From NCBI GenBank assembly GCA_020073565.1, contig JAIQEY010000018.1:36431-100430 (forward strand): a DNA stretch of 64,000 nucleotides. Direction: 5' to 3'. A program made the translations under genes and the position numbers. Positions 13,401 to 60,844 of the stretch are shown piece after piece (position 1 is the first letter of the stretch; each line of letters begins with the position of its first letter). The DNA is from Terriglobia bacterium. GTDB taxonomy: Bacteria; Acidobacteriota; Terriglobia; Terriglobales; Acidobacteriaceae. The notes under the pieces were generated by a model that searched no databases, was not told where the DNA came from, and was given only the letters and a program-made list of their open reading frames with translations.

Positions 13401-13861
13401 TCAATTTCCACCAGGATCCTTCCACCGGCGACATCATTCAGGACAGCATCTCGAAGGGCAAGCGTATGCCTTGGATGATTCAGACCGACCTGAACCTCTC
13501 GCATCAACTCAGGGTCAGCAAGTCCAACGAGAACCTGCGCCTCTCCTTCGGGCTGAATGTCTTTAACTTGTTCAATCAGCATCAACCGATCACGGTGTAC
13601 AACGCCCCCCTGGCAGGTAGTCAATATGACACCCCCACCGGCGGGGCGCTCGGCTGGGATTACCAGGCGTTGATGACCAACTTCAACTACATGGCGATCA
13701 TGAACGATAAGACAATCGTAATAGACCCCGACACTGGCAATCCTGTGTATGGCGGTCCAAACACCAACGGACAACCGAATACCTTGGCTTCCCGGTACGG
13801 TCACCCAGTCTTCTACCAGAGCGCGCGCAACATGCGTCTCCAAATCAAGTTCACCTTCTAG
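10424..13861 (+). CDS. TonB-dependent outer-membrane receptor with N-terminal carboxypeptidase-regulatory-like domain
   Basis: AAGGAG RBS and a signal peptide. GIQGVVKDQTGAVVSNAAVEISG...DSNGSYHFSNLSPGTYILTVTARGFK (CarboxypepD_reg). A plug-like segment, a long beta-rich body, and a C-terminal ...LQIKFTF aromatic OMP signature. Confidence 0.85.
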   Translation: MKRSTNTSIMLCLLVLFALALCVPVLAQETTAGIQGVVKDQTGAVVSNAAVEISGPALIGTKKANTDSNGSYHFSNLSPGTYILTVTARGFKVAKRAGIDLEAGRLPSMDISLELGQASEIMEVTGQAPLVDVTQSKVAVTITQEVLENIPKGRSFQSVIGFAPGARQEPMQSKRDDTGRLNGFQIDGASDSENVYMTEGLNTTAIYGGGVGANVPMEFVQEVQVKTSSFEAEFGGATGGVVNVIQRRGGPKWHGSVFTYFQGNQLSGNDNCLDRAVLSLFAASCNLRLQPGTSLNAGSLANLWADRQDGTAEQYVTKQDKWSTVEPGYEIGGPLFNNRLWLFSSYVPTIAKVTRNVDFTGLNPGPRDFNQSRTTHSFMNRLDYRLTDSIRLFGAWQSGYDHVVGNVNMPRPDSALGQINTTAGNDPTSLRPDTGYVSPLTILNFGGDVSLGSKAVITARYGSFYTNSEDRGKLTGTRYVWQSDSTGTCDPANPATAWECAVTAAGANHTAGFANIGNNQQQAFDVFSRRQFTTDVSYFVGRFLGGTHNLKAGYSVMRQAENVANTFNTSNILVFMTQTDAYTTASGPTSTVCATVIAANGKCAGPYGYYILRDGVLTNGKVSALNHSIYFQDGWTIKGLTINAGVRLDKEFLPPYRPGASQISFGFGQKIAPRIGGAYDLLHNGKVKLYASYGKFYDIMKYSLPRGSFGGDRWHDCAYSLDSPDYTQIVPDNVGGKFCPDSGPASGSVPGTFIENQDWRASAPGDPSDPIIQPNMHPMSTHEYVFGANVEIAHNWALESRYARKRVDWTIEDMSLDDGQYYIGNPGTEYSQLLHRALPNAGIDAAVCPTCPNLPKAIRNYDGLEFRLVRRGSDKWFAQIQYAYSRLYGNYAGLADTAFLDGNGGRHEPNNGRAFDLPQMLFDGQGHTIGGPLPTDRPNVFSGVGYYRLKWFGMETLMGLTQSFNEGVPMSTCLPTVDSTSSCMFVAGQGNWINFHQDPSTGDIIQDSISKGKRMPWMIQTDLNLSHQLRVSKSNENLRLSFGLNVFNLFNQHQPITVYNAPLAGSQYDTPTGGALGWDYQALMTNFNYMAIMNDKTIVIDPDTGNPVYGGPNTNGQPNTLASRYGHPVFYQSARNMRLQIKFTF

Positions 13862-13882
13862 CAACTGGCGAACTTCACTTTC

Positions 13883-13920
13883 CGGGGCCGGAGAAATCCG
13901 GCCCCGTTCTTTTTTGTTTT
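13883..13920 (+). terminator. Rho-independent terminator after the TonB-dependent receptor
   Basis: cggggccgga-gaaa-tccggccccg (10-bp stem) followed by ttcttttttgtttt. Confidence 0.8.
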
Positions 13921-14163
13921 CATTTTCCGGGGATTCGGCTCGACTTAACTCCCTGATTCCAAATGACTCCGGTTGAGATAACGGGATAAGTAAATTACTT
14001 CTGGGCGAACAGGCCACGATTCGTCGTAAATTGAACACTGGAACCCTGAAAGACCTGCGAAGCAGACTAGCGGCCACCGACACTGGATTCACAGTCCTTT
14101 CATAGTTCTGCTTTATGCTTGGTGTCTCCGTTCTCAGGTCCCTGGGGATTGAGCGAGTTTGCC

Positions 14164-46081: not shown

Positions 46082-46285
46082 ATCTTCCTCCAAGGGCACA
46101 ACTGACCGCTGGGCCCGAACGGTATTGGATTTGGACATTCTGCCAGCTTTCGCCGGAGATTGGAACGGCAGGATCGGAGACTCTCGGTCTGACCGGAAAC
46201 TCAGAAGCGAACGTCACAAGATGGAGGTTGTTCATGACCCCGCATGCGCAACGCGGCTACGATTCAACAGGCTCAGTTGGTGAAA

Positions 46286-46309
46286 TGGCGGAGGCGTGTG
46301 CGAGTCGAA
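46286..46309 (-). repeat. Direct repeat of the 3' terminal 24 nt of tRNA-Sec (putative distal att site)
   Basis: tggcggaGgcgtgtgcgagtcgaa versus tggcggaAgcgtgtgcgagtcgaa at 59813-59836 (23/24, same orientation). It covers the T-loop through CCA of the tRNA. Confidence 0.8.
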
Positions 46310-47056
46310 TCCGCCTTGAACCTAACATTCAACAAGATACAGAGCAGCGGTAGGCAGTTTTAACCGTATTAGTACATGGTAAGCAGTGGCAATGGCATGT
46401 GAACAGCATGTGGAACCCCAGACCTCTACCGTATCAAGTTAATTGATCTTAGTACAGCAGGAGCGGGCAGTCTGGCACGGACTCACTGCTTCTTCTTTTC
46501 TTTCAGGAGGTTTACACACCCCTCCAAAGTGGACATAGCACGTTTTCTCATTGCATCCTGCGCTAGAAGAAACTCGCTGTACATTTTAAATGCAGTCTCC
46601 GACACCGTATAGAGGAGCATAGAGGCATCCAAGCATGCCTGCACGAGGTGCAGGTATCTCTGGTTTTCGGAGGTGTTCCCCACCATCCCTTGGAAGCCCC
46701 GACTCCATTCCGGCCTGCCCCATGCATACCGACATGTTGCGACTGGCGTCATCGAGATAGCCAACCAAGAGAAATCCCGCTGGCCCGTTGAAGCCGTCGG
46801 GCGACTTCTTCAAACGTGCGAGAAGATCGCGGGCCGCCGTCAACACTTCCCGATCCTAACGAAGCGAACGTGGCGCGGACAAGACGGAGCAAAACCATTA
46901 CTTCTCGGCACCCGGCTCGACGTACTGGCACATGCCCTGAAGGAGAATGCCAATAATCGTTGCCCTTACGTGTGCGCTGCTGTTGCGCTGCCGCGCGAGC
47001 TATCGACGCTTACATCGAAAAGGAAGAAGGAGAAGCGGCTTCAACAGAAATAGAAC

Positions 47057-47215
47057 GTGGCGCAGGCAAACTCCCAGAAAATTTTCAATTCAACACCAAC
47101 TCTCCCCTTCTTCATCGCCTTGCTGGTGTTCGGTCCCAAGAAACTGCCCGAGTTGGGCAAAGGCACCGGTAAAGGGATTCGTGTTTTCAAGAACGAAATT
47201 TCTTGGCATCGCTAG
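47057..47215 (+). CDS. TatA/TatE-like small protein, probably a truncated remnant
   Basis: Hand translation, not in the ORF track (52 aa, GTG start): ...TLPFFIALLVFGPKKLPELGKGTGKGIRVFKNEISWHR*. It matches the TatA TM helix-hinge-amphipathic helix core, but both termini are atypical or short. Confidence 0.4.
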   Translation: MAQANSQKIFNSTPTLPFFIALLVFGPKKLPELGKGTGKGIRVFKNEISWHR

Positions 47216-47916
47216 AATTTCCTGTGCTTTCGTTTCGCTTCCGACATGCGCGTCATCGCAGTCAATCACATTCTGTCTCCGCCGACGAAGTAATCACTGT
47301 GCAAGTCAACAGCTTGTCAATAGCGAGCTTAATAGTGATACGACAACGGCTCGACGGACTAGGTAATCGCCGGAAGATGAATAGTGGCACTGAATAAATT
47401 CAGTCACGACCTGAAATTGTGGTTGACAGTGGCCTCTGGGGGGGTATAGTAGGCTGGTCAAAAACGGGAAAACGAAATTCGGGTTCGAAGGCGTGAAAGC
47501 TCTCCGGGGTCCGAAAGGGTACGCCCAAGGAGGAAAGTATAATTGCTCTCGAAACGCCTACCATCATCACAAAGTGACCGATTTTAGAGCGTGTCACAAT
47601 CTGTCACAATTCGCGTTGGGATTTTGCCGTTTCAAACGCCCCGCCGCACGGAAACTCACGAGTCCTTGCCGCTCACTCGGCCCGGCTCACCGCCGTTGGG
47701 GACTAGATGCGCTCACGGGATCGGCGTCGTGGCCGTTGGGTTTTGATTCCGCGTCCGGTTCGGTCTTGCCGTTGGGATCGCCATCAGAATCGGCCCCATC
47801 CGCATAACAGATTGCGCCGGCAGTCGTTGCGCGTCCCGGTCTTCGCCTGGCGCAAGGTTGTCGCAACGACGTTGAGGGGAAACTGCGAGATGGCTTTCTC
47901 GATCATGTTCTTGAAT

Positions 47917-49134
47917 CTATGGGCGCTGTGGTTGTGGGTTGGAGGCTGGGGGCAGATCCAGTCTCTTCCAGAGTGCTTTCCGTTTCTCGACATCTTCGTG
48001 CTGCAACTGTGTCGCTTTCTGAAATTCGTGCTCCGACTCAGCCTTTTGTCCCAATCGGCCGTAAGTGAGGCCGAGATAATAATGCGCTTCCAGGAGCGAA
48101 TCGTCGTTGGCTGTAGCCCGCCGCAGAAGTTCGACAGTCTGGGTGTAATGTTTCTGCTGAAATTCGAGTCTCCCCAACGCCGATAAAGCGCCCGCATGTT
48201 TCGGATCGCGATCGAGCACGTGCTGCAAATTAGCTCTGGCCGGGCCCCAGTTGTCGGCAAGGAGTTCCAATACTCCAAGCCGAAAGTAAGCCTCGGTTTG
48301 TTCTGGCGCAAGCGCAATCGATCGCTCGAACTGAGTTCGGGCTTCGTCCGGCCGCTCGAGAGCCGCAAGAGTCATGCCCAGCGAGCAGTAACCCGAGGGA
48401 TCGTCCGGACTTAAAGTGATGTAATACGCGAACTGCTGGCGAGCCTCGTCGAGTTCTCCCAAGCCGCCGTATGCGCGGCCCAGGCCATACACAGCGAACG
48501 GGTCATCCTTGCGCTGCGACAAGGTTTCCTTAAAACCGTCGACCGCATCCTGCAACAACGACATCTGAAAAGCCGCCGTTGCGAACTCGAATTGTACGTC
48601 GGGATTTTTGGGCGCAAGCTTTCTCGCCTCAATCAGCAATCCCAGCGCTTGTTTCGGGTCGTCGCTGCTCGCTGCCGTCTGAGCATGCTCTCGGAGAATG
48701 TGCACCAGTGCGTCAGATGCGTCGGTGCGAGCGGGATCGAGCTTGATAGCTGTTTGCAGTTCGGGAACAGCTTCATCTTCGCGGCGGGTCTGCAGGTAAA
48801 GAAGGCCAAGGTGCGCGTGCGCGCTGGCGAAATCTGGCTTGCTCTGAATGGCTCGCTGGAAGAGGGTTTCGGCATCTATCTGGCGACGCTGCAAAATGCG
48901 GACTACGCCCAGCAAATCCAAGGCGCGATATTCCTTGGGAGCGGCGCGCAGCACCCGTTGCAACTCACCTTCGGCGCGATCCAGATTTCCAGCAGAGAGA
49001 AACTGGACAGCATGGCTCAGCCGAGTCGCAGTTGCATCTTGGGCGAAGCTCGGCGCAGTAAATATCGCCAGCCAGATCAGTGCAAACATCGAGGCGAATC
49101 GCGCTCGGCAGGAGTCTTGAGAGTGCAAGTCCAT
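47917..49134 (-). CDS. Secreted TPR-repeat protein
   Basis: Signal-like MDLHSQDSCRARFASMFALIWLAIFTAPSFA. About 10 TPR units (AHAHLGLLYL, YGLGRAYGG, YCSLGMTL, YFRLGVLE, HYYLGLTYG). Confidence 0.7.
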   Translation of the reverse strand: MDLHSQDSCRARFASMFALIWLAIFTAPSFAQDATATRLSHAVQFLSAGNLDRAEGELQRVLRAAPKEYRALDLLGVVRILQRRQIDAETLFQRAIQSKPDFASAHAHLGLLYLQTRREDEAVPELQTAIKLDPARTDASDALVHILREHAQTAASSDDPKQALGLLIEARKLAPKNPDVQFEFATAAFQMSLLQDAVDGFKETLSQRKDDPFAVYGLGRAYGGLGELDEARQQFAYYITLSPDDPSGYCSLGMTLAALERPDEARTQFERSIALAPEQTEAYFRLGVLELLADNWGPARANLQHVLDRDPKHAGALSALGRLEFQQKHYTQTVELLRRATANDDSLLEAHYYLGLTYGRLGQKAESEHEFQKATQLQHEDVEKRKALWKRLDLPPASNPQPQRP

Positions 49135-49266
49135 TAACCTACAACGGGTCTCAAACTGTTCTCGAATGTGCAGCGGGGATTTCCTGGTTGTCAGCCGCAG
49201 CCTTCTTATTGTACCTACACAATCGACTGGCACGCTGGCTGGGTCGGCTGCAATGAAGCACGCGAG

Positions 49267-50003
49267 TTAGCACGCCGCTCGATGTCCCATCGGTTTCACG
49301 GGCGGTTTGCCTGCTGCCAACGCCGTCATTCCGCCGCCCGCCAGCTAAACTCCGCCTGGCGGTAAACGAAGCATCATCGCTGCGCAACAACGCGATTAGT
49401 TTTGCAACTTCTTCGGGACGCGCGATTCGGCCAAGCGCATGCAGGTGTGCGATTTCCTGAAGCAGAGAGGCTAAATCCTCCATATTTTGTACGCTCGACC
49501 GGAACATCGGGGTATCGACGGCGCCCGGGGAAACGCAATGCACGCGAATGTTATCCTGCGCGTGATCAACTGCAAGAGCTCGAGTCAGTCCTGCGATGGC
49601 ATGCTTGCTGGTCACGTAAGCGACCGAGTCCGGCAAAGTCCTTACCGCTTGTACGGATGAAACATTCACGACCGAAGCACCAGCACTCTTCATCAAGAGA
49701 AAGAATGCGCGGAAGGTGAGAAATATTCCTTTGACATTGATGGCCATGACTTCGTCCCAGGTTCTCTCCGACGTGGTCGCGTCGGTGCCGTATCGCTGAA
49801 TGCCCGCGCTGTTCACGAGAAACGCAACGTTTCCGAATTCTTTCGAGATCTGAGCAGCAGCGCGTCACTTGGTGAGACGAAGAAACGTCGCAAGAGATGA
49901 AGCGCGCGTTGGAGCTAATCGCGGATGGCGGAGCGCGGTCGAGAAGTACAACCTTGGCTGCCAGAAGACTTGCCATCAATCCGCCATCAAAACTAAGCTG
50001 TTT
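49267..50003 (-). pseudogene. Short-chain dehydrogenase/reductase (SDR) pseudogene
   Basis: SDR core is readable (KVVLLDR..CDVSS..|frameshift near 49865|..EFGNVAFLVNSAGIQ...NVSSV...YVTSKHAIAGLTRALA...VHCVSPGAVDTPM...). A second frameshift before GGGMTA lies near 49340. The TGxxxGIG glycine motif is deleted. Confidence 0.7.
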
Positions 50004-50480: not shown

Positions 50481-53400
50481 CTACTTGCAGTCCGCGCAAC
50501 AGACTCCTGGAACCGACGTCAGAGGCGAAGTGCGTAAGATACGGAAGTTTCCGAGAGCATCCGTGAGGGGTTGTGCGAAATCTTCCGACTGAAAACCTGC
50601 GGCCGTACCCCTGCCAGAGCCTGATCTTTCTCCCAAAACGTTAGTTGATAAGTCGCTATTAACGGTGGCAACGCCGGCGGCTGCGGGTACGACTAATGCT
50701 CCCAGCGTAGGCATCATTTCAACACAAAGAACACTCAGAGAAGCATCCAGGGGAAGGCCAAGTTCGCGCAAGGCATTCAGAATCTCGCGGTGGGACCAGC
50801 GTGTCTCGGCTTGGGCTGGAGCGTCGAAGTTCTGAAACCCGACCAGCGTGGGTCCGAACGGCCGGTCGAGCTTGCCCCGGAATCTGGGGACGACGTTCAG
50901 TTTGCGGTCCCCCAGCAGGATATTGCGGAAGTCTTTACCATCGGCTTGGTGGACCTGCGCATACAAAAGGGCCCAAATCTCGGTGCGCGGTGGATCGTGA
51001 GTGATGTTTTTTCCGTTCAGGACCGCCATGGCGTATGGCGCTTCAATGATCAAGTCATCCTGTGCGCGCTTGCAGGTACAGAAGAGAGTAGGAGCGGGAT
51101 GCTGAGCTCCCGTAGTGCGCAACGAACGCCCCCAACGGCCGTGCGCAGTTGACCAGATGTGGGCGTGTCCCACACGCAGTTCGTAGGTAAAGAAGCCAAA
51201 CAACTCGGGGCTGTCGGGATTGAGGCCGTGAGGCAGGCGAACAAGGAAGTGTACCTTGCTGTTGCCAGCCGGTTCCAGCCGGACCATGGCTGACAGACCG
51301 GCCTCGTCATCGGTCGCATTTTGGGGTATGACACGGATCAATTCAGGATCGATCGGAAGTGGCGGCTCCTCTTGTGGAGTAAACGTCTCAATGCGATCGT
51401 CGGACAAAAGTGGATCAGGTGCGTAGCCGAGGAAGCGAATGAAATACTCGTCGTTTGGATCGCGTATCGGCTCCTCCATCTCAAGCCACAGAAAGCGGCG
51501 ACGCGCCTCAGTGGATGCGTAATCTTTGCTGCGCTCGTATTTCGAGAGAGCCAGACCAGCCGATACGATCCGCGGCACCTGCGCTGGAGGCGTCGTAACC
51601 GGCAAATCCAAATGCAACTTGAAGGAAGCCGGATCATCACTATGGACCGGTGGACTAGCGAAATGCGGTTGCACGTCGTAGTCAAGCTCTATGATGTCGG
51701 GACAACGTGTTTCGGTCGCAGAGCCAGCCAGCATCAACTCGGATTTCGGTTCGACCGCGTCGAGGAAGATGAGCGTAGTATGTCCGCGCTGCGGATCTTG
51801 AAGCGCCTGGATGGTTGCGGTGGGTGTGAGTTCCCAGTCACCCACCGGTTTGCCGCCGTTGTCGTCGGTTTCGGCATCCGATCGGAAATGCTTCTTGCGG
51901 AAGAATTCAAAACTCACTGGTTGAAGGTTGCTCCATGTCCAGTCACGTCCCAGATCGAACGTAATTGCGACGATCCAATGATTGATCAGGTCTTCTTTGG
52001 CGGCAAAGGTCAGCGACGAATGGTCCGGCGCGAGCGAGTGCCGGATGCGGCGCGAACAGCCGAACACAACGCGTTCGCCTGTCTTCGCCACCAGTGTCAT
52101 ACCTCTGTGATCGACTGCGATTTCATGCGCCAGGCGTTCGATCATGGCCGGACTGCTGCCCGTGGTGCGCTGGAAGATGAGCGAATTCAGCGTACCGTCC
52201 CACGCTGGAGGCGGATCGGGCTGCAAGTAAACACCGCGGATTCTCTTGGATGCGACGAGATTGGTTTCGTCGGAAGATTCGTGCCGCACCTTTATCTGAA
52301 CAGGCTTGCCGACGTTCGTGTTCGGAGCGAAGTATGCCGCACCATCGTCAGCGACGGCACGGATAGTCAGGCGAACGTCACGTGCTGTGGGCAGAACGAT
52401 CTGAGGCAGAGCGTCCAACTCGGCCTGAGTCAAGCCCAAGTCGCCCAGGTCAGCCGGGTCCTCGAACTTCAGAACTTGAGCGTCCCGGAACTCGAGTGGA
52501 ATCACAGATGGCTGATCGAACGCAACGGGAAACTTTCGATCTGTAGTGTAAAACGCGATGTATGGATCACGTCCGGACAACGATAGCAGATTGTCCATGC
52601 GCAACGTTTTCACCTCAACCTCGATTTGCACACGAGTTACATCGGGGTCAGGGATTCCGAAACTGCTCTTACCGACGGCTGCGTCTGAAGCCGCTTTGAG
52701 CAGCGGAATAGGATCAATATACTTTCCGGTAAACACAACTGCTGGATAGCCAAGTAGTGGACGATTCACTTTCAGGGAGTTTCCTGCAAACAATTCATTG
52801 TCCACTGGCAAGCCCTCAATACGGACCGGCTCGGGCACCACGTGGCGACGGAAGGAAATCGTGGTGATGGCAGGAGCAGAGGCTGGGATGGGGGGGATAA
52901 GAGGACTAACGTCCGGCCCCTTCGGCCCTCCACCGGTGGGATCCATGAGCCTGATCCGGAAGTCATAAGTCTCGCCATAGCGAAGAGGAATCTGGGCCAG
53001 ACCCAGCGGATCATAGAGACGTCCCAGATTGGCCTTTTTGTTCTTATCCTGTTCCGTCTTGTACAGGACTGCCGCATCTTCGTCTGGGAGCACCAGGGAC
53101 TTGCCATTCCATTGCGAGAAATACGACGGCAGCCAGAACTGGCTTGTGTCTTGATAGCCGTCGAGCTGTTGCGGATGCACTTCTACCGGCAGTTCTTCTG
53201 TCACCTTGCCAAGTGAAACGGTGTCAATCTTTATGTCGGTCTTGCTGCGTACTCGTACTAAGCTGTGCCATTCCGTTTCCGGATGTTTTCGCGCATCGAT
53301 GCGATATCCGAAAACGCCCATGGGCGCGTCGAGTCGCTGCGGCTGTCCGGCGATTTTAGGAGCAGTTGGATCAGCCTGCAGCTGGCGACTCTGCCAGATG

Positions 53401-54398
53401 AGGATCTGCTCGTCATCCCATCCCAGCCGGATGCCAATATCGGTCAGCGGTGAGAAGCCGTCGGGATCTTCGGCCAGTAGGTTTTGGCTGACGGGCTGGA
53501 CAGCGTGAACGATCTTTGCGTAGCCATCGTCGTAATCGGCGGCCTCAATAAATACCTCATCATAGTTACCCGGCACTACGGGCGGGCCAGGAATCGAATT
53601 CAGAACTGGGAACAACACCGCGGCGAATACCTGCCGCCGCTTGTTCTTCTCAAGCGCAGGAATGCGCGCAGCGTAGCGCTTCAGAAAATCGAAGTCAGCA
53701 ACAACTTGCGAGGCGTACTCGCTATCGGCAGCCAAATCTACATATACGAAGCCTCCTTTCGCAAACAGGCCGCCATCAACCTTGAAGCTAGCCGACCGGA
53801 TGAGACCCAGGTGCCGCGCCAATTGTGGATGACGCAGACAGAAGGCGTAAATCTCGCCCCAACTAACGTCATCGGACGAAGGAACAAATGCCGGGTTGAG
53901 TTCTTTCTTAGCCTTAATCGCGCACTGATAGCTATCGTCAGTTACTGCACCCAGAGTGCGGGAACCGGTGAAAAGGAACGACTCGCGATAACTGCGCGGC
54001 AGGTACTTCATGATCGGAGTTCCCTGCTGGCAAGGTCCCGCGAGTCTCGGAGCCAAGATTGACAGTTTGAAACGGCCAGGAGCTGGCGCGATCAGCGATT
54101 GGAACAATTTCCGTGCCTCAACAAGTGCGCCATTTGCCTCCGGAAGTGGGGCGTTAAAATCCACCGGAGTGTTGACGGGAAACCGGCTCAGTCCATCTAG
54201 CGCGCGAACCTGAAATCTCAGGTCTGCATCGGCGAACGCGGCCGTGGTGTCGCCGAGATTGGGGAAGTTCTGAATCACCGGCAGAAGGGGGTCCCCATTC
54301 CACAAGTTGCTCAGCCGTGGCACTACCAGGATGTTCAGATGCAGCCGGTTTCCATCGAACTCCTGCGGGAATGTCAAAATACTGATTCGCGGATCCAT
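50481..54398 (-). CDS. Giant hypothetical protein B (about 1,305 aa), no recognisable domain
   Basis: Uninterrupted ORF. The ATG at 54398 lies 14 nt downstream of the stop of the preceding giant gene (the ORF is also open to a TTG at 54440). No known motif recognised. Confidence 0.75.
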   Translation of the reverse strand: MDPRISILTFPQEFDGNRLHLNILVVPRLSNLWNGDPLLPVIQNFPNLGDTTAAFADADLRFQVRALDGLSRFPVNTPVDFNAPLPEANGALVEARKLFQSLIAPAPGRFKLSILAPRLAGPCQQGTPIMKYLPRSYRESFLFTGSRTLGAVTDDSYQCAIKAKKELNPAFVPSSDDVSWGEIYAFCLRHPQLARHLGLIRSASFKVDGGLFAKGGFVYVDLAADSEYASQVVADFDFLKRYAARIPALEKNKRRQVFAAVLFPVLNSIPGPPVVPGNYDEVFIEAADYDDGYAKIVHAVQPVSQNLLAEDPDGFSPLTDIGIRLGWDDEQILIWQSRQLQADPTAPKIAGQPQRLDAPMGVFGYRIDARKHPETEWHSLVRVRSKTDIKIDTVSLGKVTEELPVEVHPQQLDGYQDTSQFWLPSYFSQWNGKSLVLPDEDAAVLYKTEQDKNKKANLGRLYDPLGLAQIPLRYGETYDFRIRLMDPTGGGPKGPDVSPLIPPIPASAPAITTISFRRHVVPEPVRIEGLPVDNELFAGNSLKVNRPLLGYPAVVFTGKYIDPIPLLKAASDAAVGKSSFGIPDPDVTRVQIEVEVKTLRMDNLLSLSGRDPYIAFYTTDRKFPVAFDQPSVIPLEFRDAQVLKFEDPADLGDLGLTQAELDALPQIVLPTARDVRLTIRAVADDGAAYFAPNTNVGKPVQIKVRHESSDETNLVASKRIRGVYLQPDPPPAWDGTLNSLIFQRTTGSSPAMIERLAHEIAVDHRGMTLVAKTGERVVFGCSRRIRHSLAPDHSSLTFAAKEDLINHWIVAITFDLGRDWTWSNLQPVSFEFFRKKHFRSDAETDDNGGKPVGDWELTPTATIQALQDPQRGHTTLIFLDAVEPKSELMLAGSATETRCPDIIELDYDVQPHFASPPVHSDDPASFKLHLDLPVTTPPAQVPRIVSAGLALSKYERSKDYASTEARRRFLWLEMEEPIRDPNDEYFIRFLGYAPDPLLSDDRIETFTPQEEPPLPIDPELIRVIPQNATDDEAGLSAMVRLEPAGNSKVHFLVRLPHGLNPDSPELFGFFTYELRVGHAHIWSTAHGRWGRSLRTTGAQHPAPTLFCTCKRAQDDLIIEAPYAMAVLNGKNITHDPPRTEIWALLYAQVHQADGKDFRNILLGDRKLNVVPRFRGKLDRPFGPTLVGFQNFDAPAQAETRWSHREILNALRELGLPLDASLSVLCVEMMPTLGALVVPAAAGVATVNSDLSTNVLGERSGSGRGTAAGFQSEDFAQPLTDALGNFRILRTSPLTSVPGVCCADCK

Positions 54399-54412
54399 AG
54401 CTGTGCCTCTGG

Positions 54413-57400
54413 TCAGGCGATCTGCCTGGTTTCTTGCCAACTCTTGGAAAAGTGGAGATTGATCACTAGGAAGATGCTGATATCAAGGCCGAACGTGACT
54501 TGTGCGGCCAAATCGGTTTCGCTTCCAATGCGGTGGTAAATTCCCTGCGCTTCAATCTGGATCTGTACGGTGACGATGCCATCGAGAATCTCCGCGCGCC
54601 CCCGGAACAGAAGGAAGGCCGCGACCGTGATCTGGCTTGTATCCAGATCAACCTGGACACCCACCATGTAGAGCAGCGAGACGGTGCCAATGACGGGTAG
54701 TCCCACCGCGATCTCTGCACCAAAGCCAAACTTCATGTGGAGCGAGGGACCCGTCTTGATGTCGGCGGCCGTGCGGAGGTCGACTGAACCAACGGCGTAA
54801 ACGGTGGCCACAGCCAGACTTACGCACATCACGGACAGGCTTCCGCCAAATTCGAGAAAGGCCCCGGCTGACGGGATCAACTGGCTGGGCGCATTGGGGA
54901 TGGACATCGCCTCATTGAAGTACACACCGACTGCGAGGTGCGCCTCGAGCTTCAACGGATTGCTTGGGTTGTCGTATGCGATACCCGGTGGAAACCTCAC
55001 CGCTGGAATTTCTTTGCGCGCATGGAAGGCGTAATTCCAACTATCGGCCGAGTTGCTCATCGCAATCTCGAGACCCTTTTCGAAAGCAGCCTTGTAATCA
55101 CCCCCCTGCAACTGATCGAGGATCTGCAAGATGTCAACAACGGGTTGGAGCTCTTTGCTGAATATCAGTTGCGGCTCCTTGAATGACGGGTCAGAACCCT
55201 TCTCCGTATCGAACTTGCCCTTGATCATCATCAGGCGCGTTATCGACCCCAGGTCGACCACCATAGCGATGTCATTCACCTTCGACAGCCATTGATTCCC
55301 CAAGCTGTTGGCCGCCGAATCGAACCCGTAGCGCAAAACACCAGGTCCAATCAGCTTGCCATCCCGGTCCTTGTTTGAATATTCAACGTATAGCTTGAAA
55401 AACTGCTCGTTGATCAGATAGAGCGGGCCGTCAGGGAGCGTCTCCTCGAAGACCTTCGCCGGATTGGCCGGGTCTAGCAGTTTGTAACCTTCCGCCAAAA
55501 TCTTGGTCTGGAACGCTCCGAGATTGAGTGAGAGCGCATCCCGGATATTTGGGAAAATAGCCTTCGTGTTGACCAGTCGGTAAGCGTCTGCGAAATCGGG
55601 CGTCGCGGACTTAAGCTCCTGGACGCCCTCCTGGAAACTGGGCAGACGAAAAAGTGCTTTCTGGGTATTGGTAGATTGCAACAGACCGAAGTTGCGCGTG
55701 TTCGGTCCGGGCGCTTGCACCAAGTCCAGCGGGTTGGCGATGCGGACCAGATCTGCCGGCGTGGTGTCGGTACTCGTCGCGTCAGGAGAAAGTTTTCCGC
55801 GACGGATAACGGGAACTGTCGCTTGCGGATCGAGAGGCGAGACCTCCCCGGTGCCTTGATTGTGCTGCACCACGCTCCAGGAGCCATCCTTGGGCAGCAC
55901 AACCGCACCACGGGCCGCACTGACAAAAATCGGGCCCGAGGCGTCGGTCGAAGCGTTCACGTCCACGCGGCTTATACGTATCTGCTGTCCGCTCTTGCCC
56001 ACATCTAGGACGGCAGCAATCTGGCCGCCAAGGCCGACGAACTGGCTGGCAAGCAACTGTACAAACAGGAAGTCCGGGATCGGTTCTCCGCGTGGCGCAA
56101 GCTGGACGTAGCCGAGCATTCCTTTGGAAGGAACGCGGCCCCTCACCGCGCCACTAATCACATAATCAATTTGAACGTCGGCATCGAAGTATACCGGCTG
56201 AAGGATAACGGCAGGATTGCGCACATCAGGCGGCGTGAAGCTATCCACACTATGCTCGATGCCCTCGCTGTCCAGATATGTATCGCCGATCTTTTTGTTC
56301 CAGATCTGCTGGAAACGAGGAACGACGCTGGTCTCCTGGATGTTCTTTACCTTGAAAACGCCCTTGACCAGACCGGGATGAAACACATACGGATTGGGGC
56401 GGGGCAAAGGGTTGAAGCCACTATCGAACACGTTGTAGCGAAAATCGTAGATGCCGTCCGACTCCGCTTGCCAGCCGGTGTCAAACCGGAAGACATAGCC
56501 ATCGCTGGCGCGCGTCATGGTGATGGTGCGCACCACGTGAATGCCCCAGGGATAAATCAAGCTACGCACCTGAATGACTTCCTGCGCGGTGCGTCCGCTA
56601 AAAACATCAAAATAAGATTTGCTGGTAGCGGCAATGGCTGCCGACGGGTCCTCCCAATGACTGAAGATATTTGCGCCGTAGCCGCAGAAGTCGATCCGGC
56701 TCAGCGGTACGCCGGAAGGCTTGAATGCCACCGGCGGATCATAGAAGAACTCTTTGTTGAAGATGGTACCGACGCTGTCCCCCAGCGTTCCCGCGAAGGT
56801 TGGCACTCCGAAAGGATCGAGTACGTTGTTTAGTTGCAGCGTGCCTCCGGCAAAGAGCGGGCTTTTCACCGGATGGACTGGGGCATCGGCTCGCACTTGC
56901 AAAGCACCCTTTACTCCGCCGCCCTCATACTCCGGCTTGAACAACCCAAGCTGCGCTGGAGCTAAAGCGGGATTGAACTGATTCGTTCGACTGAATTCTG
57001 CAAAAGCACGCAGCCCAAAGGGCAGCGTAAACAGCGCACCTGTGAATCCATTTTTCCGTTCATCGAAATCCTGTACGAGAAACTCAGTCACCGGTATCGG
57101 CGCGATTGGAACTAGCTTGACACTATCGTTGAACAGGCGCGTTGGACCGCCGTCATTGGAATAGAGGTTCCAGCCAAACGGTGGATCTCCGGCCAAGGTC
57201 TTTTGCGATAAGTTGAACAGTGGTTCCCAGCTAACTTGTGGCAACGTAAACGCGCGTACGTACCTACTTTGCGCCGACAAATCGAGTTGCTGCACTTCCA
57301 ATGGAAATGCCGGTTGCTGATCGTTTCCCACGGGTTTGTAAATCCGGTAGAAAGTCAGGTCTCTTTCCGTCAGCGCGGCGTCATTGAACCAGGCGAAGCT

Positions 57401-59479
57401 CACGCCCATCTGGTCAGCGTTGGTGGAGACATCCAGCAACGCGAACTGCTCGTAGTCGAAGACCTTGAAGAAGCGATCCCAGTCGCCCTGGTTTGATCCA
57501 CGTCTGCTGAAGCTGGCTTGGAAGGCCGTCTCCTGCGGAAACGTTTGTCCGGCGGTCTCGAGTGTTGCAGAGCTCAACTCTTGTTGCTGCTTGGCGGCGT
57601 TGGTCCAAACAGCGATGGTATCCTGCTGCGTGCCCAGCGGAGCGAAGTAGAAGCTAATCGTGACATCATCCGGATCCTCATCTTTGGGCGCTTTCGTCCA
57701 CGCAACCAGGGCAACCAGAAGCATGCTGGGTCGCGCCATCCGCTGGCCGTCACGATTGGACCGTCGCAGCCAGCTGACGTTAGCGGCATACGGATCAGGC
57801 AGCGTGGGCAGTAATCCAAACAGTCCCATGCCCAGCCACAGGGACGCTTGTTGGACAGTTTCCTCATCCAGCAATTCGGCAAATAGCAGCAGGCTGTTCA
57901 CCGGCGTGATTGTGAACAGGGCATTGTGAATCGCCAGCGAGATAAGATGCCCGGGCTCCACCGGCCATTTCACCTGGGGATCTAGGCTGTCCACTAGAAT
58001 GTTGTCATCATAAACAAACGCAAACTGCTGCCCATCGGTATAGGTCAGAAGCACAAGCGACTTCAGGGTGTGGATGGGAAAGGGAGTCCCCTTCACGTCC
58101 ACGGGCCGGTCAAAGCGCCCTTCAATGTCGGCCTGGGCAAGAACCAACTCGTTACCGCTGGCCGCACAGGCGTATGTCACCGAGAAGGAATCGGTATACT
58201 GCAGATCCATCTCCGAACGAAATTTGGAATCGGCGTCCTTCCAAAGCAAGAATCGCTGGTGCGCATAACGATTCGAGGCCTGAGGATCGGTGATCACGAT
58301 CACGCCCGGCCCGAGCGCAACCCAGGGCGCGCGCAGACGGATAGGCCCATCTCGTAGCCCACGCCAGCTGAGGGTTAAATTCTCGGCGGTCCGGACGGCG
58401 AGTCCACCGTCTCCGGCAGCCTCTGTTGGATTGGCGACGTCGATCAGCGCAACCGGCAACGTCCATCCCGATCGCTGAATCGCTGCTTCCCCGGCAAGCA
58501 CTACAAACGGAGATTTCGATGTCCCTACCTCAAATGCGTTCTTCGAAACACGGAGGGGAATCACCATCGATAGCAATGAAGGTTCGTAGGTGGGCGCAGA
58601 AGCTGCGATCCAACTAAACCCCAGCGTCTTGTCATAGAGCTTCCATTGGGCGTCCGTTAGCTTTCTGACCGTAATCTGGCTCGCCTGAAGTTCGAAGACG
58701 AACTCGTCAGGAGTGGTCAAGGTGGCATTGGAGGCATCGGTGCCCGCGTTACCGGGAGCAGCACCGGGCTGCTGACTGGGTGAAAGCTGCAAGTCAACTT
58801 CGCATTTGCAGCCGAGAGGCATCGTGAGCTTTCCACCAACGTCGGTTGGCGGGGCGCTGAAAGAAAGGGTGCCGGCTTTTATGCGAAGGCCCACGTAACC
58901 GCCGGCTGGAGCGGCGGTCGCCAATAGATCAGCGCGAATCCAGAAGCTTGATTTGCCAAGTTTGTGTTGCTTTCCGACAGGGGGCGGAGCAGCTATGAAT
59001 GTTTTCTCGTAAAACAATAGTGCCGGTTGGGAGTCGCCTGGCAGATAGACCGGAACCATTCGGACAATCTGGAAGAAATCAAACCAGTACAACCGCCCAT
59101 CCACACTGTGGAACGGGCCTAGTGAGTGTTGGGCCAGCGCGCCACGTCCCCAGACTGGCGATGCTAGCTCGAGCATGGGGGCAGCGACTGGAGCCTCGCG
59201 GCGGAAGACCAGGAACTCTGGTGCTTGGTCCGGTTTCAGTTGTTTGAGCAACCGTCCAATTCGTTGCCGCCGGTCCTGACCCAGATTCTCGGGCGCGTTA
59301 AACGTTGCCCGGTCGATAGCCAGCGAACGGGGAGTAACCGCGGTATTCGGATCGTCGATGCGCGACCGAACGAGCAACTTCTCCAACTCGATGAGCTCTT
59401 CGTTTTCCTGCGGGGCCTGAGGCCTCAAGGTCACCGAAAGACTGGCCAAGCGGGACTGCAAGTCGTTCCGAGGGACCAT
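54413..59479 (-). CDS. Giant hypothetical protein A (about 1,688 aa), no recognisable domain; beta-rich hydrophobic C-terminal module
   Basis: Uninterrupted ORF. The ATG at 59479 is preceded by AGGAG (59486-59490); the ORF track extends to a TTG at 59566. No known motif recognised. Confidence 0.75.
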   Translation of the reverse strand: MVPRNDLQSRLASLSVTLRPQAPQENEELIELEKLLVRSRIDDPNTAVTPRSLAIDRATFNAPENLGQDRRQRIGRLLKQLKPDQAPEFLVFRREAPVAAPMLELASPVWGRGALAQHSLGPFHSVDGRLYWFDFFQIVRMVPVYLPGDSQPALLFYEKTFIAAPPPVGKQHKLGKSSFWIRADLLATAAPAGGYVGLRIKAGTLSFSAPPTDVGGKLTMPLGCKCEVDLQLSPSQQPGAAPGNAGTDASNATLTTPDEFVFELQASQITVRKLTDAQWKLYDKTLGFSWIAASAPTYEPSLLSMVIPLRVSKNAFEVGTSKSPFVVLAGEAAIQRSGWTLPVALIDVANPTEAAGDGGLAVRTAENLTLSWRGLRDGPIRLRAPWVALGPGVIVITDPQASNRYAHQRFLLWKDADSKFRSEMDLQYTDSFSVTYACAASGNELVLAQADIEGRFDRPVDVKGTPFPIHTLKSLVLLTYTDGQQFAFVYDDNILVDSLDPQVKWPVEPGHLISLAIHNALFTITPVNSLLLFAELLDEETVQQASLWLGMGLFGLLPTLPDPYAANVSWLRRSNRDGQRMARPSMLLVALVAWTKAPKDEDPDDVTISFYFAPLGTQQDTIAVWTNAAKQQQELSSATLETAGQTFPQETAFQASFSRRGSNQGDWDRFFKVFDYEQFALLDVSTNADQMGVSFAWFNDAALTERDLTFYRIYKPVGNDQQPAFPLEVQQLDLSAQSRYVRAFTLPQVSWEPLFNLSQKTLAGDPPFGWNLYSNDGGPTRLFNDSVKLVPIAPIPVTEFLVQDFDERKNGFTGALFTLPFGLRAFAEFSRTNQFNPALAPAQLGLFKPEYEGGGVKGALQVRADAPVHPVKSPLFAGGTLQLNNVLDPFGVPTFAGTLGDSVGTIFNKEFFYDPPVAFKPSGVPLSRIDFCGYGANIFSHWEDPSAAIAATSKSYFDVFSGRTAQEVIQVRSLIYPWGIHVVRTITMTRASDGYVFRFDTGWQAESDGIYDFRYNVFDSGFNPLPRPNPYVFHPGLVKGVFKVKNIQETSVVPRFQQIWNKKIGDTYLDSEGIEHSVDSFTPPDVRNPAVILQPVYFDADVQIDYVISGAVRGRVPSKGMLGYVQLAPRGEPIPDFLFVQLLASQFVGLGGQIAAVLDVGKSGQQIRISRVDVNASTDASGPIFVSAARGAVVLPKDGSWSVVQHNQGTGEVSPLDPQATVPVIRRGKLSPDATSTDTTPADLVRIANPLDLVQAPGPNTRNFGLLQSTNTQKALFRLPSFQEGVQELKSATPDFADAYRLVNTKAIFPNIRDALSLNLGAFQTKILAEGYKLLDPANPAKVFEETLPDGPLYLINEQFFKLYVEYSNKDRDGKLIGPGVLRYGFDSAANSLGNQWLSKVNDIAMVVDLGSITRLMMIKGKFDTEKGSDPSFKEPQLIFSKELQPVVDILQILDQLQGGDYKAAFEKGLEIAMSNSADSWNYAFHARKEIPAVRFPPGIAYDNPSNPLKLEAHLAVGVYFNEAMSIPNAPSQLIPSAGAFLEFGGSLSVMCVSLAVATVYAVGSVDLRTAADIKTGPSLHMKFGFGAEIAVGLPVIGTVSLLYMVGVQVDLDTSQITVAAFLLFRGRAEILDGIVTVQIQIEAQGIYHRIGSETDLAAQVTFGLDISIFLVINLHFSKSWQETRQIA

Positions 59480-59812
59480 ACTGATCTCCTGATTTAGCTC
59501 GGGCAGCATACGCGTCTGCCCAACGCTTTTATCTTGTGCGCTGCCAGTGGCGGGAGTGAAAGACAAGGATTGTGCAATCTTCGGGCGAATCGCTGAGAGT
59601 GTGCCTCAATGTTCGAGTTGAGATGACGGATCAAAATCTGGGACTCTTTCACCGGCCGAGAATTGGCGCACATGACCCACGAGAAGAGCATTAACGACCT
59701 AGCGTTCAGCCCGGACGGTAAGTATCGCGTTTTTATCACACCACCCGGGGTTGACACGCTTGGTCGCAGATTAAGACAACTCTTGGAATCTCCTAGGCCA
59801 TTGAACCCAAAC

Positions 59813-59909
59813 TGGCGGAAGCGTGTGCGAGTCGAACGCACCGGCGACAGGATTCCTGCCGCCCGCCGGTTTTGAAGACCGGGAGGATCACCGGACCCCA
59901 TGCGCTTCC
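59813..59909 (-). tRNA. selC: tRNA-Sec (selenocysteine, anticodon UCA)
   Basis: 97 nt: GGAAGCG...acceptor...CGCTTCC-G-CCA. Anticodon arm CCGGT-CTTCAAA-ACCGG. Long extra arm GGCGGCAGG-AAT-CCTGTCGCC. T arm GTGCG-TTCGACT-CGCAC. Closely parallels E. coli selC as I recall it. Confidence 0.88.
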
Positions 59910-59978: not shown

Positions 59979-60638
59979 CTACTTCGGTTGTGCCGCCACC
60001 CGGAGATAGGGCTTCAGGGTCTTCCAACCGGCCGGGAATTTCAGCTTGGCCTGTTCGTCAGAAACGGATGTCGGAATGATGACATCGTCGCCCGGCTTCC
60101 AGTTTACCGGCGTAGCGACATTGTGTCTCGCTGTCAGTTGAATGGAATCCAGCGCGCGCAACACCTCGTCGAAATTCCGGCCGGTGCTCATGGGATAAAT
60201 CAACATCAGCTTGATCTTCTTGTCCGGACCAATCACAAACACGGTGCGCACCGTGGCATTGTCCGTCGCCGTCCGGCCCTCACTCGTCGCGCCCGCGCTC
60301 TCCGGCAGCATGTCATACAGCTTCGCTACTTTCAATTCGGGATCGCCGATCATCGGATAGGTCACCTTGTGCCCCTGGGTCTCTTCAATGTCCGCGGCCC
60401 ACTTCCCGTGATTGACTACCGGGTCGACACTCAGCCCCACAATCTTCGTGTTTCGCTTCGCAAATTCCACCTGCAGGCCCGCCATGTAACCGAGCTCCGT
60501 CGTACACACGGGGGTAAAGTCCTTGGGGTGCGAAAACAGGATCGCCCAGCCATTGCCGATCCATTCGTGAAAATTGATCGGGCCCTGCGTGGTTTCCGCC
60601 GTAAAGTTCGGGGCTTCGGAATTGATGCGTAATGACAT
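59979..60638 (-). CDS. 1-Cys peroxiredoxin (Prx6-type)
   Basis: WAILFSHPKDFTPVCTTELG peroxidatic Cys motif. ATG 60638 with an AAGGAG RBS. Confidence 0.9.
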   Translation of the reverse strand: MSLRINSEAPNFTAETTQGPINFHEWIGNGWAILFSHPKDFTPVCTTELGYMAGLQVEFAKRNTKIVGLSVDPVVNHGKWAADIEETQGHKVTYPMIGDPELKVAKLYDMLPESAGATSEGRTATDNATVRTVFVIGPDKKIKLMLIYPMSTGRNFDEVLRALDSIQLTARHNVATPVNWKPGDDVIIPTSVSDEQAKLKFPAGWKTLKPYLRVAAQPK

Positions 60639-60844
60639 GTTGCTCTCCTTTGACGGGATCAACCAGATAGATTCGATTGCGGAAAATAAACTCTAGTAAT
60701 TCAGTAGGGAATACAATATCTCGCAACCGATAAGCGCGTCAAGAAGACCCCAAATCGTCTGACAATTATGTTAGCGCACGACGCGCGTTTGTGCAGGCGT
60801 GCAGATAGAATTTGCGAATGACGCCTTCTCTAAGAAAACTTCCC

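Follow-up and report, generated by a model that had tools for sequence, protein, structure and literature searches.

A conserved gene pair for giant, mostly beta-sheet proteins of two unannotated families on a tRNA-Sec island

Introduction

Tc (ABC) toxin complexes are membrane-active, and open amphipathic beta grooves are found in bridge-like lipid-transfer proteins, TamB/AsmA, the LptD/LptA jellyrolls and the ApoB/vitellogenin sheets. In Enterobacteriaceae, selC/tRNA-Sec is a classic integration site of genomic islands (PMC6174562, PMC7545054). Here we describe two adjacent genes, termed A and B, which lie next to a tRNA-Sec gene in a 64,000-nucleotide stretch of a Terriglobia bacterium (Acidobacteriota; assembly GCA_020073565.1, contig JAIQEY010000018.1, positions 36,431 to 100,430 of the forward strand). 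This whole stretch is referred to below as the window, and positions are counted from its first letter. Together they make up an autonomous operon of two genes that is transferred horizontally as a whole, and each gene encodes a giant protein of an unannotated family. A first-pass annotation, made from the letters of the window alone, had described them as a coupled pair without recognizable domains, acquired horizontally as the main cargo of a tRNA-Sec island, and had suggested a toxin, pore, contact-dependent or anti-phage role. Literature searches on giant beta-barrel gene pairs and on selC islands yielded nothing on either family.

Results

A and B form a conserved operon

Both giant minus-strand open reading frames (ORFs) of the first-pass annotation were re-found at exactly the same coordinates, together with the AGGAG site, the 14-nt gap and the upstream extensions, in which the frame of A stays open as far as a TTG at 59566 and that of B as far as a TTG at 54440 (Table 1). 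The ATG starts of both genes agreed with the N termini of homologues in alignments of 24 A and 25 B sequences. The spacer with its ribosome-binding site (RBS) is consistent with operon coupling. Identical database entries are the hypothetical proteins LAO56_10755 (A) and LAO56_10750 (B) of an Acidobacteriia metagenome-assembled genome (MAG). A scan for promoters and terminators gave no signals above shuffled expectation.

Coupling of the two genes, at first read from the window only, was found to be conserved elsewhere: of the first 87 loci examined, 85 had A immediately upstream of B in the same orientation, and the other two were truncated by contig ends. In 70 pairs of full length, A and B varied in step in their identity to the window proteins (r = 0.98), and the median gap between the genes was ∼40 nt. 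No third gene recurred with the pair, as judged by all-versus-all BLAST of the flanking ORFs of the 87 loci and by Pfam and PADLOC searches of the 150 nearest neighbors.

Table 1. Features of the A-B locus, in window positions (AF2, AlphaFold2; pLDDT, predicted local distance difference test score; SDR, short-chain dehydrogenase/reductase)
Feature	Position	Strand	Remarks
Gene A	54413..59479	-	1688 aa from ATG; giant, mostly beta, unannotated family
Gene B	50481..54398	-	1305 aa; giant, mostly beta, second unannotated family
AGGAG ribosome-binding site of A	59486..59490	-	6 nt before the ATG of A; read from sequence
A-B intergenic spacer	54399..54412	-	14 nt, from TGA of A to ATG of B; GAGG-like RBS
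Most constrained core of A	56321..56770	-	residues 904-1053; invariant columns cluster; pLDDT > 90
C-terminal long-strand beta-meander of A	54422..55291	-	residues 1397-1686, ∼290 aa; DSSP on AF2 model
Variable low-complexity linker of B	50574..50705	-	∼residues 1232-1275; length and sequence differ among homologues
C-terminal peptide of B	50484..50570	-	PL.D.LG..RILRTSPL..VP..CC..C; kept in every lineage examined
tRNA-Sec, anticodon TCA	59813..59909	-	ARAGORN; Rfam RF01852, 71 bits; immediately upstream of A
Proximal att-like repeat	59813-59836	-	last 24 nt (3' end) of tRNA-Sec
Distal direct repeat of tRNA-Sec 3' end	46286-46309	.	TGGCGGAGGCGTGTGCGAGTCGAA; 23/24 nt identical; far island border
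TatA-like ORF	47057-47215	+	52 aa; Pfam TatA_B_E, E = 4.4e-14, profile positions 10-41/53
TPR protein in island	47917-49233		apparent N-terminal hydrophobic, signal-like segment
SDR (adh_short) ORF	49151-49816	-	directly downstream of B; only profile positions ∼77-224/236

The two families are widespread, rare and strongly constrained

A word-indexed search recovered 81 proteins related to A and 1193 related to B; every one of them is named "hypothetical" and lacks a Pfam domain. Exhaustive phmmer comparison of A residues 880-1688 with 1.84 billion representatives at 50% identity yielded 702 clusters, 308 of them at E ≤ 1e-30. Full-length matches of the A family were uniformly ∼1500-1870 aa long and matched at the same relative position, so that the architecture is uniform. 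When each GTDB species was represented by one genome, relatives of B turned up in 319 of 185,579 genomes (0.17%). Species scan and cluster annotations together placed carriers in at least 13 phyla, with most in Bacteroidota. Carrier taxa comprised Acidobacteriota, Actinomycetota including Mycobacteriaceae, Chloroflexota, Gemmatimonadota, Alpha- and Betaproteobacteria, Desulfobacterota, Myxococcota (Sorangium), Ignavibacteriota, Bacteroidota, Planctomycetota, Verrucomicrobiota, Nitrospirota and Cyanobacteria. Further copies, on megaplasmids, were found by tblastn against plasmids in Bacillus toyonensis (plasmid pDC11_1; Bacillota, monoderm), Tistrella mobilis, Microvirga terrae and "Ca. Chlorohelix." Two copies look degraded: at locus L095 (10001-18608) A and B are each broken into several ORFs, and on pTM1 of Tistrella mobilis (L089 7279-11992) an A-like gene annotated with only 1230 aa is followed by a 1-kb unannotated gap and then by B.

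Comparison with a 79%-identical relative (locus L092) gave dN/dS ratios of 0.075 for A and 0.053 for B, with dS being saturated. Along A, minima against the same relative were located at residues 904-1053 (0.024) and 1504-1653 (0.021). The former region, the most constrained core (Table 1), carries the motif GYGA..FSHW ... GRTA.EV.QV.S..YPWG..VVRTIT..R...G...R.D.GW. and is still recognizable in the Bacillus toyonensis homologue at 27% overall identity. Conservation extended over the whole length of both proteins (mean column identity, 45-61%), and the C termini of A and B were among the most conserved parts rather than variable.

A and B match no known domain

Full-length A and B matched no profile in Pfam-A, NCBIfam, PADLOC-DB or PHROGs by hmmscan at E ≤ 1. 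When 10 overlapping tiles of A and B were compared with Pfam at E ≤ 10, the only match was a chance one to VP40 (E = 0.054), and 24 members of the A family scanned one by one against Pfam gave zero matches. PDB sequences searched by phmmer and with family profiles contained no meaningful match for A or B. When the most divergent A clade served as query of a word-indexed profile search, all proteins returned were "hypothetical" and had no Pfam domain. The absence of recognizable domains, first noted by reading the translations, was thus upheld for whole proteins as well as for tiles. No Walker A, HExxH, thioester CxEQ or YD pattern was found in A or B by regular expressions. Since catalytic motifs were lacking and the invariant positions of both proteins are mostly G, P, W, Y, R and D, A and B are not obviously enzymes. 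They are also unrelated to each other by hhalign, which rules out that they are paralogues. As initially described for the window copy, a signal peptide, lipobox or N-terminal transmembrane helix was absent, and this held in every lineage examined (24 A and 25 B homologues; Kyte-Doolittle [KD] scan), with polar N termini devoid of an h-region.

Predicted structures of A and B

An AF2 model of A residues 489-1688, based on 81 sequences (pLDDT 83.6; predicted template modeling score [pTM] 0.71), was mostly beta. Its C-terminal meander consisted of 14 predicted strands, mostly 13-19 residues long with two shorter ones, and the last eight were connected by turns of 2-4 residues. From residue 1509 onward the strands showed strict alternation, with KD values of the two faces of +2.2 to +2.9 versus -0.4 to -2.4 in 24 homologues. 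Because these C-terminal strands are strictly amphipathic, A displays three Kyte-Doolittle peaks (KD19 > 1.6 at residues 1539-1568, 1585-1610 and 1657-1675). Of the hydrophobic beta module originally proposed for the end of A, the beta-rich and amphipathic character stood; its size had to be corrected from ∼170 to ∼290 aa, and its strands are long (14-19 residues), not short. The module is compatible with membrane insertion or oligomerization. A terminates in ...SKSWQETRQIA (FSKSWQETRQIA) and has no aromatic C-terminal beta-signal.

Foldseek comparisons with the PDB were evaluated for the best 50 matches of each AF2 model. For A, the best matches were large outer-membrane barrels and lipid-binding beta structures and were local only: LptD (E = 4.6e-5), OmpG (probability 0.99, TMt 0.43), the BrkA beta-domain (probability 0.98) and BamA (probability 0.90), followed by SlpA of Deinococcus, the ushers FimD and PapC, and ApoB100 (three entries). 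Against BFVD, A gave weak matches (TM ≤ 0.11) to phage tail, tail-fiber and host-specificity J proteins, an autotransporter beta-domain and a chorein-N (VPS13-type) protein, the last with a probability of 0.30.

The model of B residues 1-1200, based on 99 sequences (pLDDT 81.9; pTM 0.64), was almost all beta. Among its 50 best PDB matches were only generic multi-beta-sandwich arrays at TM ≤ 0.14, namely MyBP-C/titin, Escherichia coli alpha-2-macroglobulin, integrin alpha, C3b, arrestin and FnIII chains of cytokine receptors. B is therefore best read, from its model, as a chain of Ig/FnIII/MG-like sandwiches without a global homologue. B is free of sequence repeats; accordingly, the earlier statement that the pair lacks RHS/YD or Ig-like tandem repeats holds at the level of sequence, but the predicted fold of B does match Ig/FnIII/MG-like arrays. 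Near its C terminus, the variable linker is short in the plasmid-borne divergent clade, and the Cys-ended peptide that follows was also found in the Bacillus, Tistrella, Chlorohelix and Microvirga homologues and at loci L093 and L094. Overall, the AF2 models of A and B are confident predictions without a global structural neighbor.

The pair is carried on a tRNA-Sec island

The 3' end of tRNA-Sec, which was the sole match of an Rfam scan, is repeated directly at the far side of the pair (Table 1). For a specific 24-mer with one mismatch within 16 kb, we estimate the chance expectation of such a repeat at ∼1e-8 or less. The repeat borders define an island of ∼13.5 kb, two thirds of which is made up of A and B, in line with the share first attributed to them. 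GC content was 0.559 in the island versus 0.58-0.59 in the flanks. No integrase or excisionase gene was detected inside the island, either among ORFs of at least 40 aa in 46150-47950 or among the larger ORFs.

The pair occurs in different surroundings elsewhere. Its closest homologue (79% identity, L092) has a Rieske gene on one side and PTS/Dak genes on the other, a context unrelated to that of the window. Copies in Sorangium and Microvirga are flanked by insertion sequences (IS21 in the former; IS630, IS5 and IS6 in the latter). B of the window is ∼43% identical to copies from Pyrinomonadaceae, which likewise belong to Acidobacteriota, versus 58-64% to those of Sorangium, Actinomycetota and Alphaproteobacteria, so that similarity of the pair cuts across phylogeny. 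The att-like repeat at tRNA-Sec, the differing context of the closest relative and similarity against phylogeny bear out the horizontal acquisition that had been suggested for the pair. Neither the 50,697 phage records nor the 2.9 million IMG/VR contigs searched contained a copy.

The remainder of the island holds the TatA-like ORF, the TPR protein and the SDR ORF (Table 1). With its N-terminal Rossmann portion missing, the SDR ORF is probably a truncated pseudogene, and the ∼1.6-kb stretch 46310-47900 contains no convincing gene. The TatA-like ORF is short or fragmentary, and no TatC is encoded nearby.

Genes in the neighborhood of the pair

The commonest families among the 150 nearest-neighbor ORFs were GerE (4/150) and SDR (3/150). 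We judged the recurrences of SDR, GerE, ABC and histidine kinase genes to be due to chance, as these are abundant families at scattered positions. Some copies have conflict-type neighbors: the Tistrella pair is flanked by the toxin-antitoxin genes RelE/B and HipA, VapB and PemK modules are present near the pair in two MAGs, the Bacillus copy has an ABC-three-component gene nearby, the Chlorohelix copy a type I-D CRISPR-Cas locus, and ThsB-TIR, DrmD and pVip (viperin-like) genes accompany other copies. Support from the neighborhood for a conflict role is modest.

Several further observations concern single loci or small sets of them. In the very divergent locus L094, the pair is followed by two codirectional, translationally coupled genes (11298-13993), which encode a PG_binding_1 protein overlapping the end of B and a 559-aa protein without a Pfam match; beyond them lie an integrase fragment and a Y2 transposase. 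This arrangement was seen in a single case. Directly upstream of A, codirectional genes for proteins of 319-534 aa without Pfam domains were found in Sorangium (L001 8613-9572), Flavilitoribacter (L002 8453-9547) and Chryseobacterium (L003 8179-9783). Since they did not cluster with each other in the all-versus-all BLAST, they do not represent a conserved third component. A MazG-type nucleotide pyrophosphohydrolase is encoded a few kilobases from the pair in Chryseobacterium sp. PBS4-4 (L003 4723-5049) and on pDC11_1 of Bacillus toyonensis (L088 19740-20069). In the window, a 1-Cys peroxiredoxin gene lies beside tRNA-Sec (59979-60662, minus strand). Peroxide-defense genes were also observed near other copies, encoding a catalase in Tistrella (L089 17422-19542), KatG in Chlorohelix (L090 4173-6347) and an AhpC/Redoxin protein in an Actinomycetota MAG (L006 12774-13352). 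This pattern, which is absent from the Pfam census of the 150 neighbors, may be a coincidence.

Discussion

A tentative model for the function of the pair

We tentatively propose that A and B are a mobile and self-contained pair of proteins that form a complex, engage membranes or lipids and play a role in conflict, as a toxin or in abortive infection; this is one possible reading among several. Any assignment of the pair to toxins, pores or anti-phage systems, as first suggested, is one that we infer. Because of their co-inheritance (r = 0.98) and translational coupling, A and B would assemble into one complex. The ∼290-aa amphipathic sheet of A might then offer a hydrophobic surface that engages the lipid bilayer, either as the wall of a pore or barrel or as a membrane-binding sheet. 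B could act as a scaffold or recognition arm, with its Cys-ended tail perhaps docking on or latching A. The pair might permeabilize a membrane as an accessory conflict function, and this membrane could be the producer's own, as in abortive infection, or that of a target cell after release by lysis. An accessory conflict role seems to us the likeliest guess because the pair is rare and patchily distributed, resides on islands and megaplasmids, and needs no neighboring gene. In a bolder reading, which appears doubtful to us, A and B would be a new class of machine, made from two giant beta-sheet components in the cytoplasm of monoderms and diderms, that inserts a very large amphipathic beta structure into membranes as a novel pore-forming toxin or abortive-infection effector, unrelated to the known pore-formers and gated by the Cys-terminated tail of the partner.

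Several results weigh against such a membrane-directed conflict function. Foldseek TM-scores of A did not exceed 0.43 per target and 0.12 per query, with root mean square deviations of 10-40 Å, and the barrel resemblance of the modeled A is one of local strand geometry, not homology. The C-terminal strands of A are less hydrophobic in the Bacillus homologue. No immunity, lysis or secretion gene recurred beside the pair in the 87 loci and 150 neighbors. Matches to defense models amounted to ∼10 of the 150 nearest-neighbor ORFs, a raw count that we judge to be at most a weak enrichment of defense genes near the pair; most neighbors were ordinary metabolic, envelope or housekeeping genes. Moreover, toxins or phage sensors in an arms race are not typically conserved over their full length as A and B are, and the very high and uniform degree of this conservation speaks somewhat against an arms-race protein.

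Alternative explanations

Owing to this very high, uniform conservation, an intracellular complex that binds lipids or other hydrophobic cargo stays alive as an alternative, albeit an unlikely one. Here, A would form an open amphipathic groove with a hydrophobic interior and B a scaffold, and the ligands bound or shuttled by the complex would be lipids, hopanoids, polymers or other hydrophobic molecules, in a physiological rather than a conflict role. The long amphipathic strands of A fit this explanation, as do its PDB matches to LptD and the three ApoB100 entries and its chorein-N match in BFVD. Purifying selection is very strong and uniform, without a hypervariable region besides the linkers, the neighbors are mostly metabolic and envelope genes, and the fold is kept in monoderms and diderms, all of which would suit a physiological function. 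However, A and B gave not even a weak Pfam match to AsmA, DUF490, Chorein_N, LptD or vitellogenin, an N-terminal membrane anchor as in bacterial AsmA-like proteins is missing, and TM-scores were low. Lipid homeostasis would also be an odd task for genes that occur sporadically (in 0.17% of species) and reside on islands and plasmids.

The pair might instead be a new anti-phage defense system, in which B senses the phage and A serves as the membrane effector or a scaffold; this is a narrower form of the conflict model proposed above and in our view quite unlikely. Consistent with defense, A and B are an autonomous two-gene unit with a patchy spread driven by horizontal gene transfer, found on islands and megaplasmids and not in the phage genomes searched, and some loci lie beside toxin-antitoxin, TIR/ThsB, DrmD, viperin-like, CRISPR or ABC-three-component genes. 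On the other hand, defense neighbors are few, with regulators and SDRs being the commonest ones, and PADLOC gave no match. Nor do A and B have the NTPase, nuclease, TIR or protease modules that defense proteins usually carry, and size and conservation of the two proteins are atypical for such systems.

A cell-envelope machine, in which A is an outer-membrane barrel of the usher, LptD, SprA or intimin-like type and B a periplasmic or surface-exposed Ig-like array, would account for the barrels among the top Foldseek matches of A, its amphipathic strands and the Ig/FnIII/MG arrays of B. We consider it very improbable, and it is already largely refuted: the proteins have no Sec/Tat signal or lipobox, A has no aromatic beta-signal and only 2-4-residue turns in place of long surface loops, copies from Bacteroidota lack Por_Secre_tail, and the pair occurs in monoderm Bacillus toyonensis, in Actinomycetota and in Chloroflexota.

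It is likewise highly improbable that A and B are a domesticated structural module of a mobile element or phage, tail-tip or host-specificity-like, that forms a particle or fiber. The proteins look all-beta and nonenzymatic and gave weak BFVD matches to tail, tail-fiber and host-specificity J proteins, but these remained at TM ≤ 0.11, PHROGs gave no match, no copy was found in the phage and IMG/VR collections, and no tail, capsid or baseplate genes are located nearby. Finally, the chance that the ORFs are spurious or decaying is negligible: two degraded-looking relatives (fragmented L095 and the interrupted A of Tistrella) are all that points that way, with nothing of the kind for the window copy, and dN/dS ratios of 0.05-0.08 for that copy, full-length conservation across phyla and confident AF2 models rule it out, which settles a question on which the first-pass annotation had made its claim depend.

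Significance of the pair

The A-B pair amounts to a sizeable blind spot in protein-family space, as it comprises ∼3,000 strongly constrained residues in a fixed pair that is spread over hundreds of species and at least 13 phyla, outside Pfam, NCBIfam, PADLOC, PHROGs and the PDB. If the sheet of A were membrane-active, the pair would represent a novel architecture for forming pores or handling lipids and would work without Sec export, in monoderms and diderms alike. The pair is open to experiment because it occurs in cultured bacteria, among them Bacillus toyonensis DC11, Tistrella mobilis KA081020-065, Microvirga terrae R24, Sorangium sp. So ce302, Flavisolibacter nicotianae X7X, Segetibacter sp. 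3557_3, Negadavirga shengliensis, Flavilitoribacter nigricans and Chryseobacterium sp. PBS4-4.

Comparison with known systems

With large outer-membrane beta-barrels, A shares long antiparallel amphipathic strands in a simple meander. In contrast to them, it has no signal peptide, aromatic beta-signal or sequence and profile similarity, TM-scores are low, both sides of its sheet have short turns, and the pair is present in monoderms. The absence of signal peptide and beta-signal, the short turns and the presence in monoderm Bacillus led us to reject A as a usual outer-membrane protein; the diderm-only distribution of BAM substrates does not apply to a pair carried by Bacillus toyonensis pDC11_1, Actinomycetota and Chloroflexota. 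Lipid-binding beta-groove proteins (ApoB100, VPS13/chorein-N, AsmA/TamB) resemble A in having an amphipathic sheet with one hydrophobic face. Unlike these, A lacks a Pfam or profile match and an N-terminal anchor, and its fold matches are weak.

The predicted fold of B resembles multi-beta-sandwich arrays such as alpha-2-macroglobulin (A2M), complement C3, integrin alpha legs and MyBP-C/titin, whereas B has no A2M, MG, Ig or FnIII Pfam match and no signal peptide and is far more conserved than typical Ig arrays. An A2M- or complement-type thioester protein was rejected for B, which has no A2M/MG Pfam match and no CxEQ and reached a Foldseek TM of 0.09 against 4rtd (alpha-2-macroglobulin).

Tc (ABC) toxins are similar to the pair in being encoded in operons of very large, signal-peptide-free proteins that are horizontally transferred on islands and plasmids. 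They differ in that A and B have no VRP1, neuraminidase-like, alpha-helical pore, TcA/TcB-binding or RHS/YD domains and are encoded by two genes, not three. The 50 best PDB matches of each model included no Tc entry; for A, teneurin-3 (probability 0.04) was the one YD-shell protein listed among them. A Tc toxin or RHS identity was dismissed, as Pfam searches of whole proteins and tiles detected no TcA-type or RHS/YD domains and regular expressions no YD. Contractile injection systems, including extracellular ones (eCIS), were discarded given the lack of a PHROGs match and of recurrent neighbors and the absence of the pair from phage collections. The contact-dependent role contemplated in the first-pass annotation did not survive: there is no signal peptide, TPS domain, TpsB/CdiB-like partner, variable toxin tip or immunity gene, and contact-dependent inhibition and two-partner secretion are disfavored. 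Its statement that the pair is not tied to any described family stands, with no Tc, eCIS or defense-system match.

As in other tRNA-linked islands, the island of the window abuts the 3' end of its tRNA gene, here tRNA-Sec, and its far border repeats that end. It deviates from them in lacking an integrase or excisionase gene and in its small GC shift, and the closest relative of the pair is located elsewhere. Two-gene anti-phage systems in PADLOC-DB differ from the pair, for which no PADLOC match and a weak defense-island context were found, and resemble it in that A and B form an autonomous, patchily distributed two-gene module on mobile elements. The A and B families, known to databases only as "hypothetical" proteins, match no described system.

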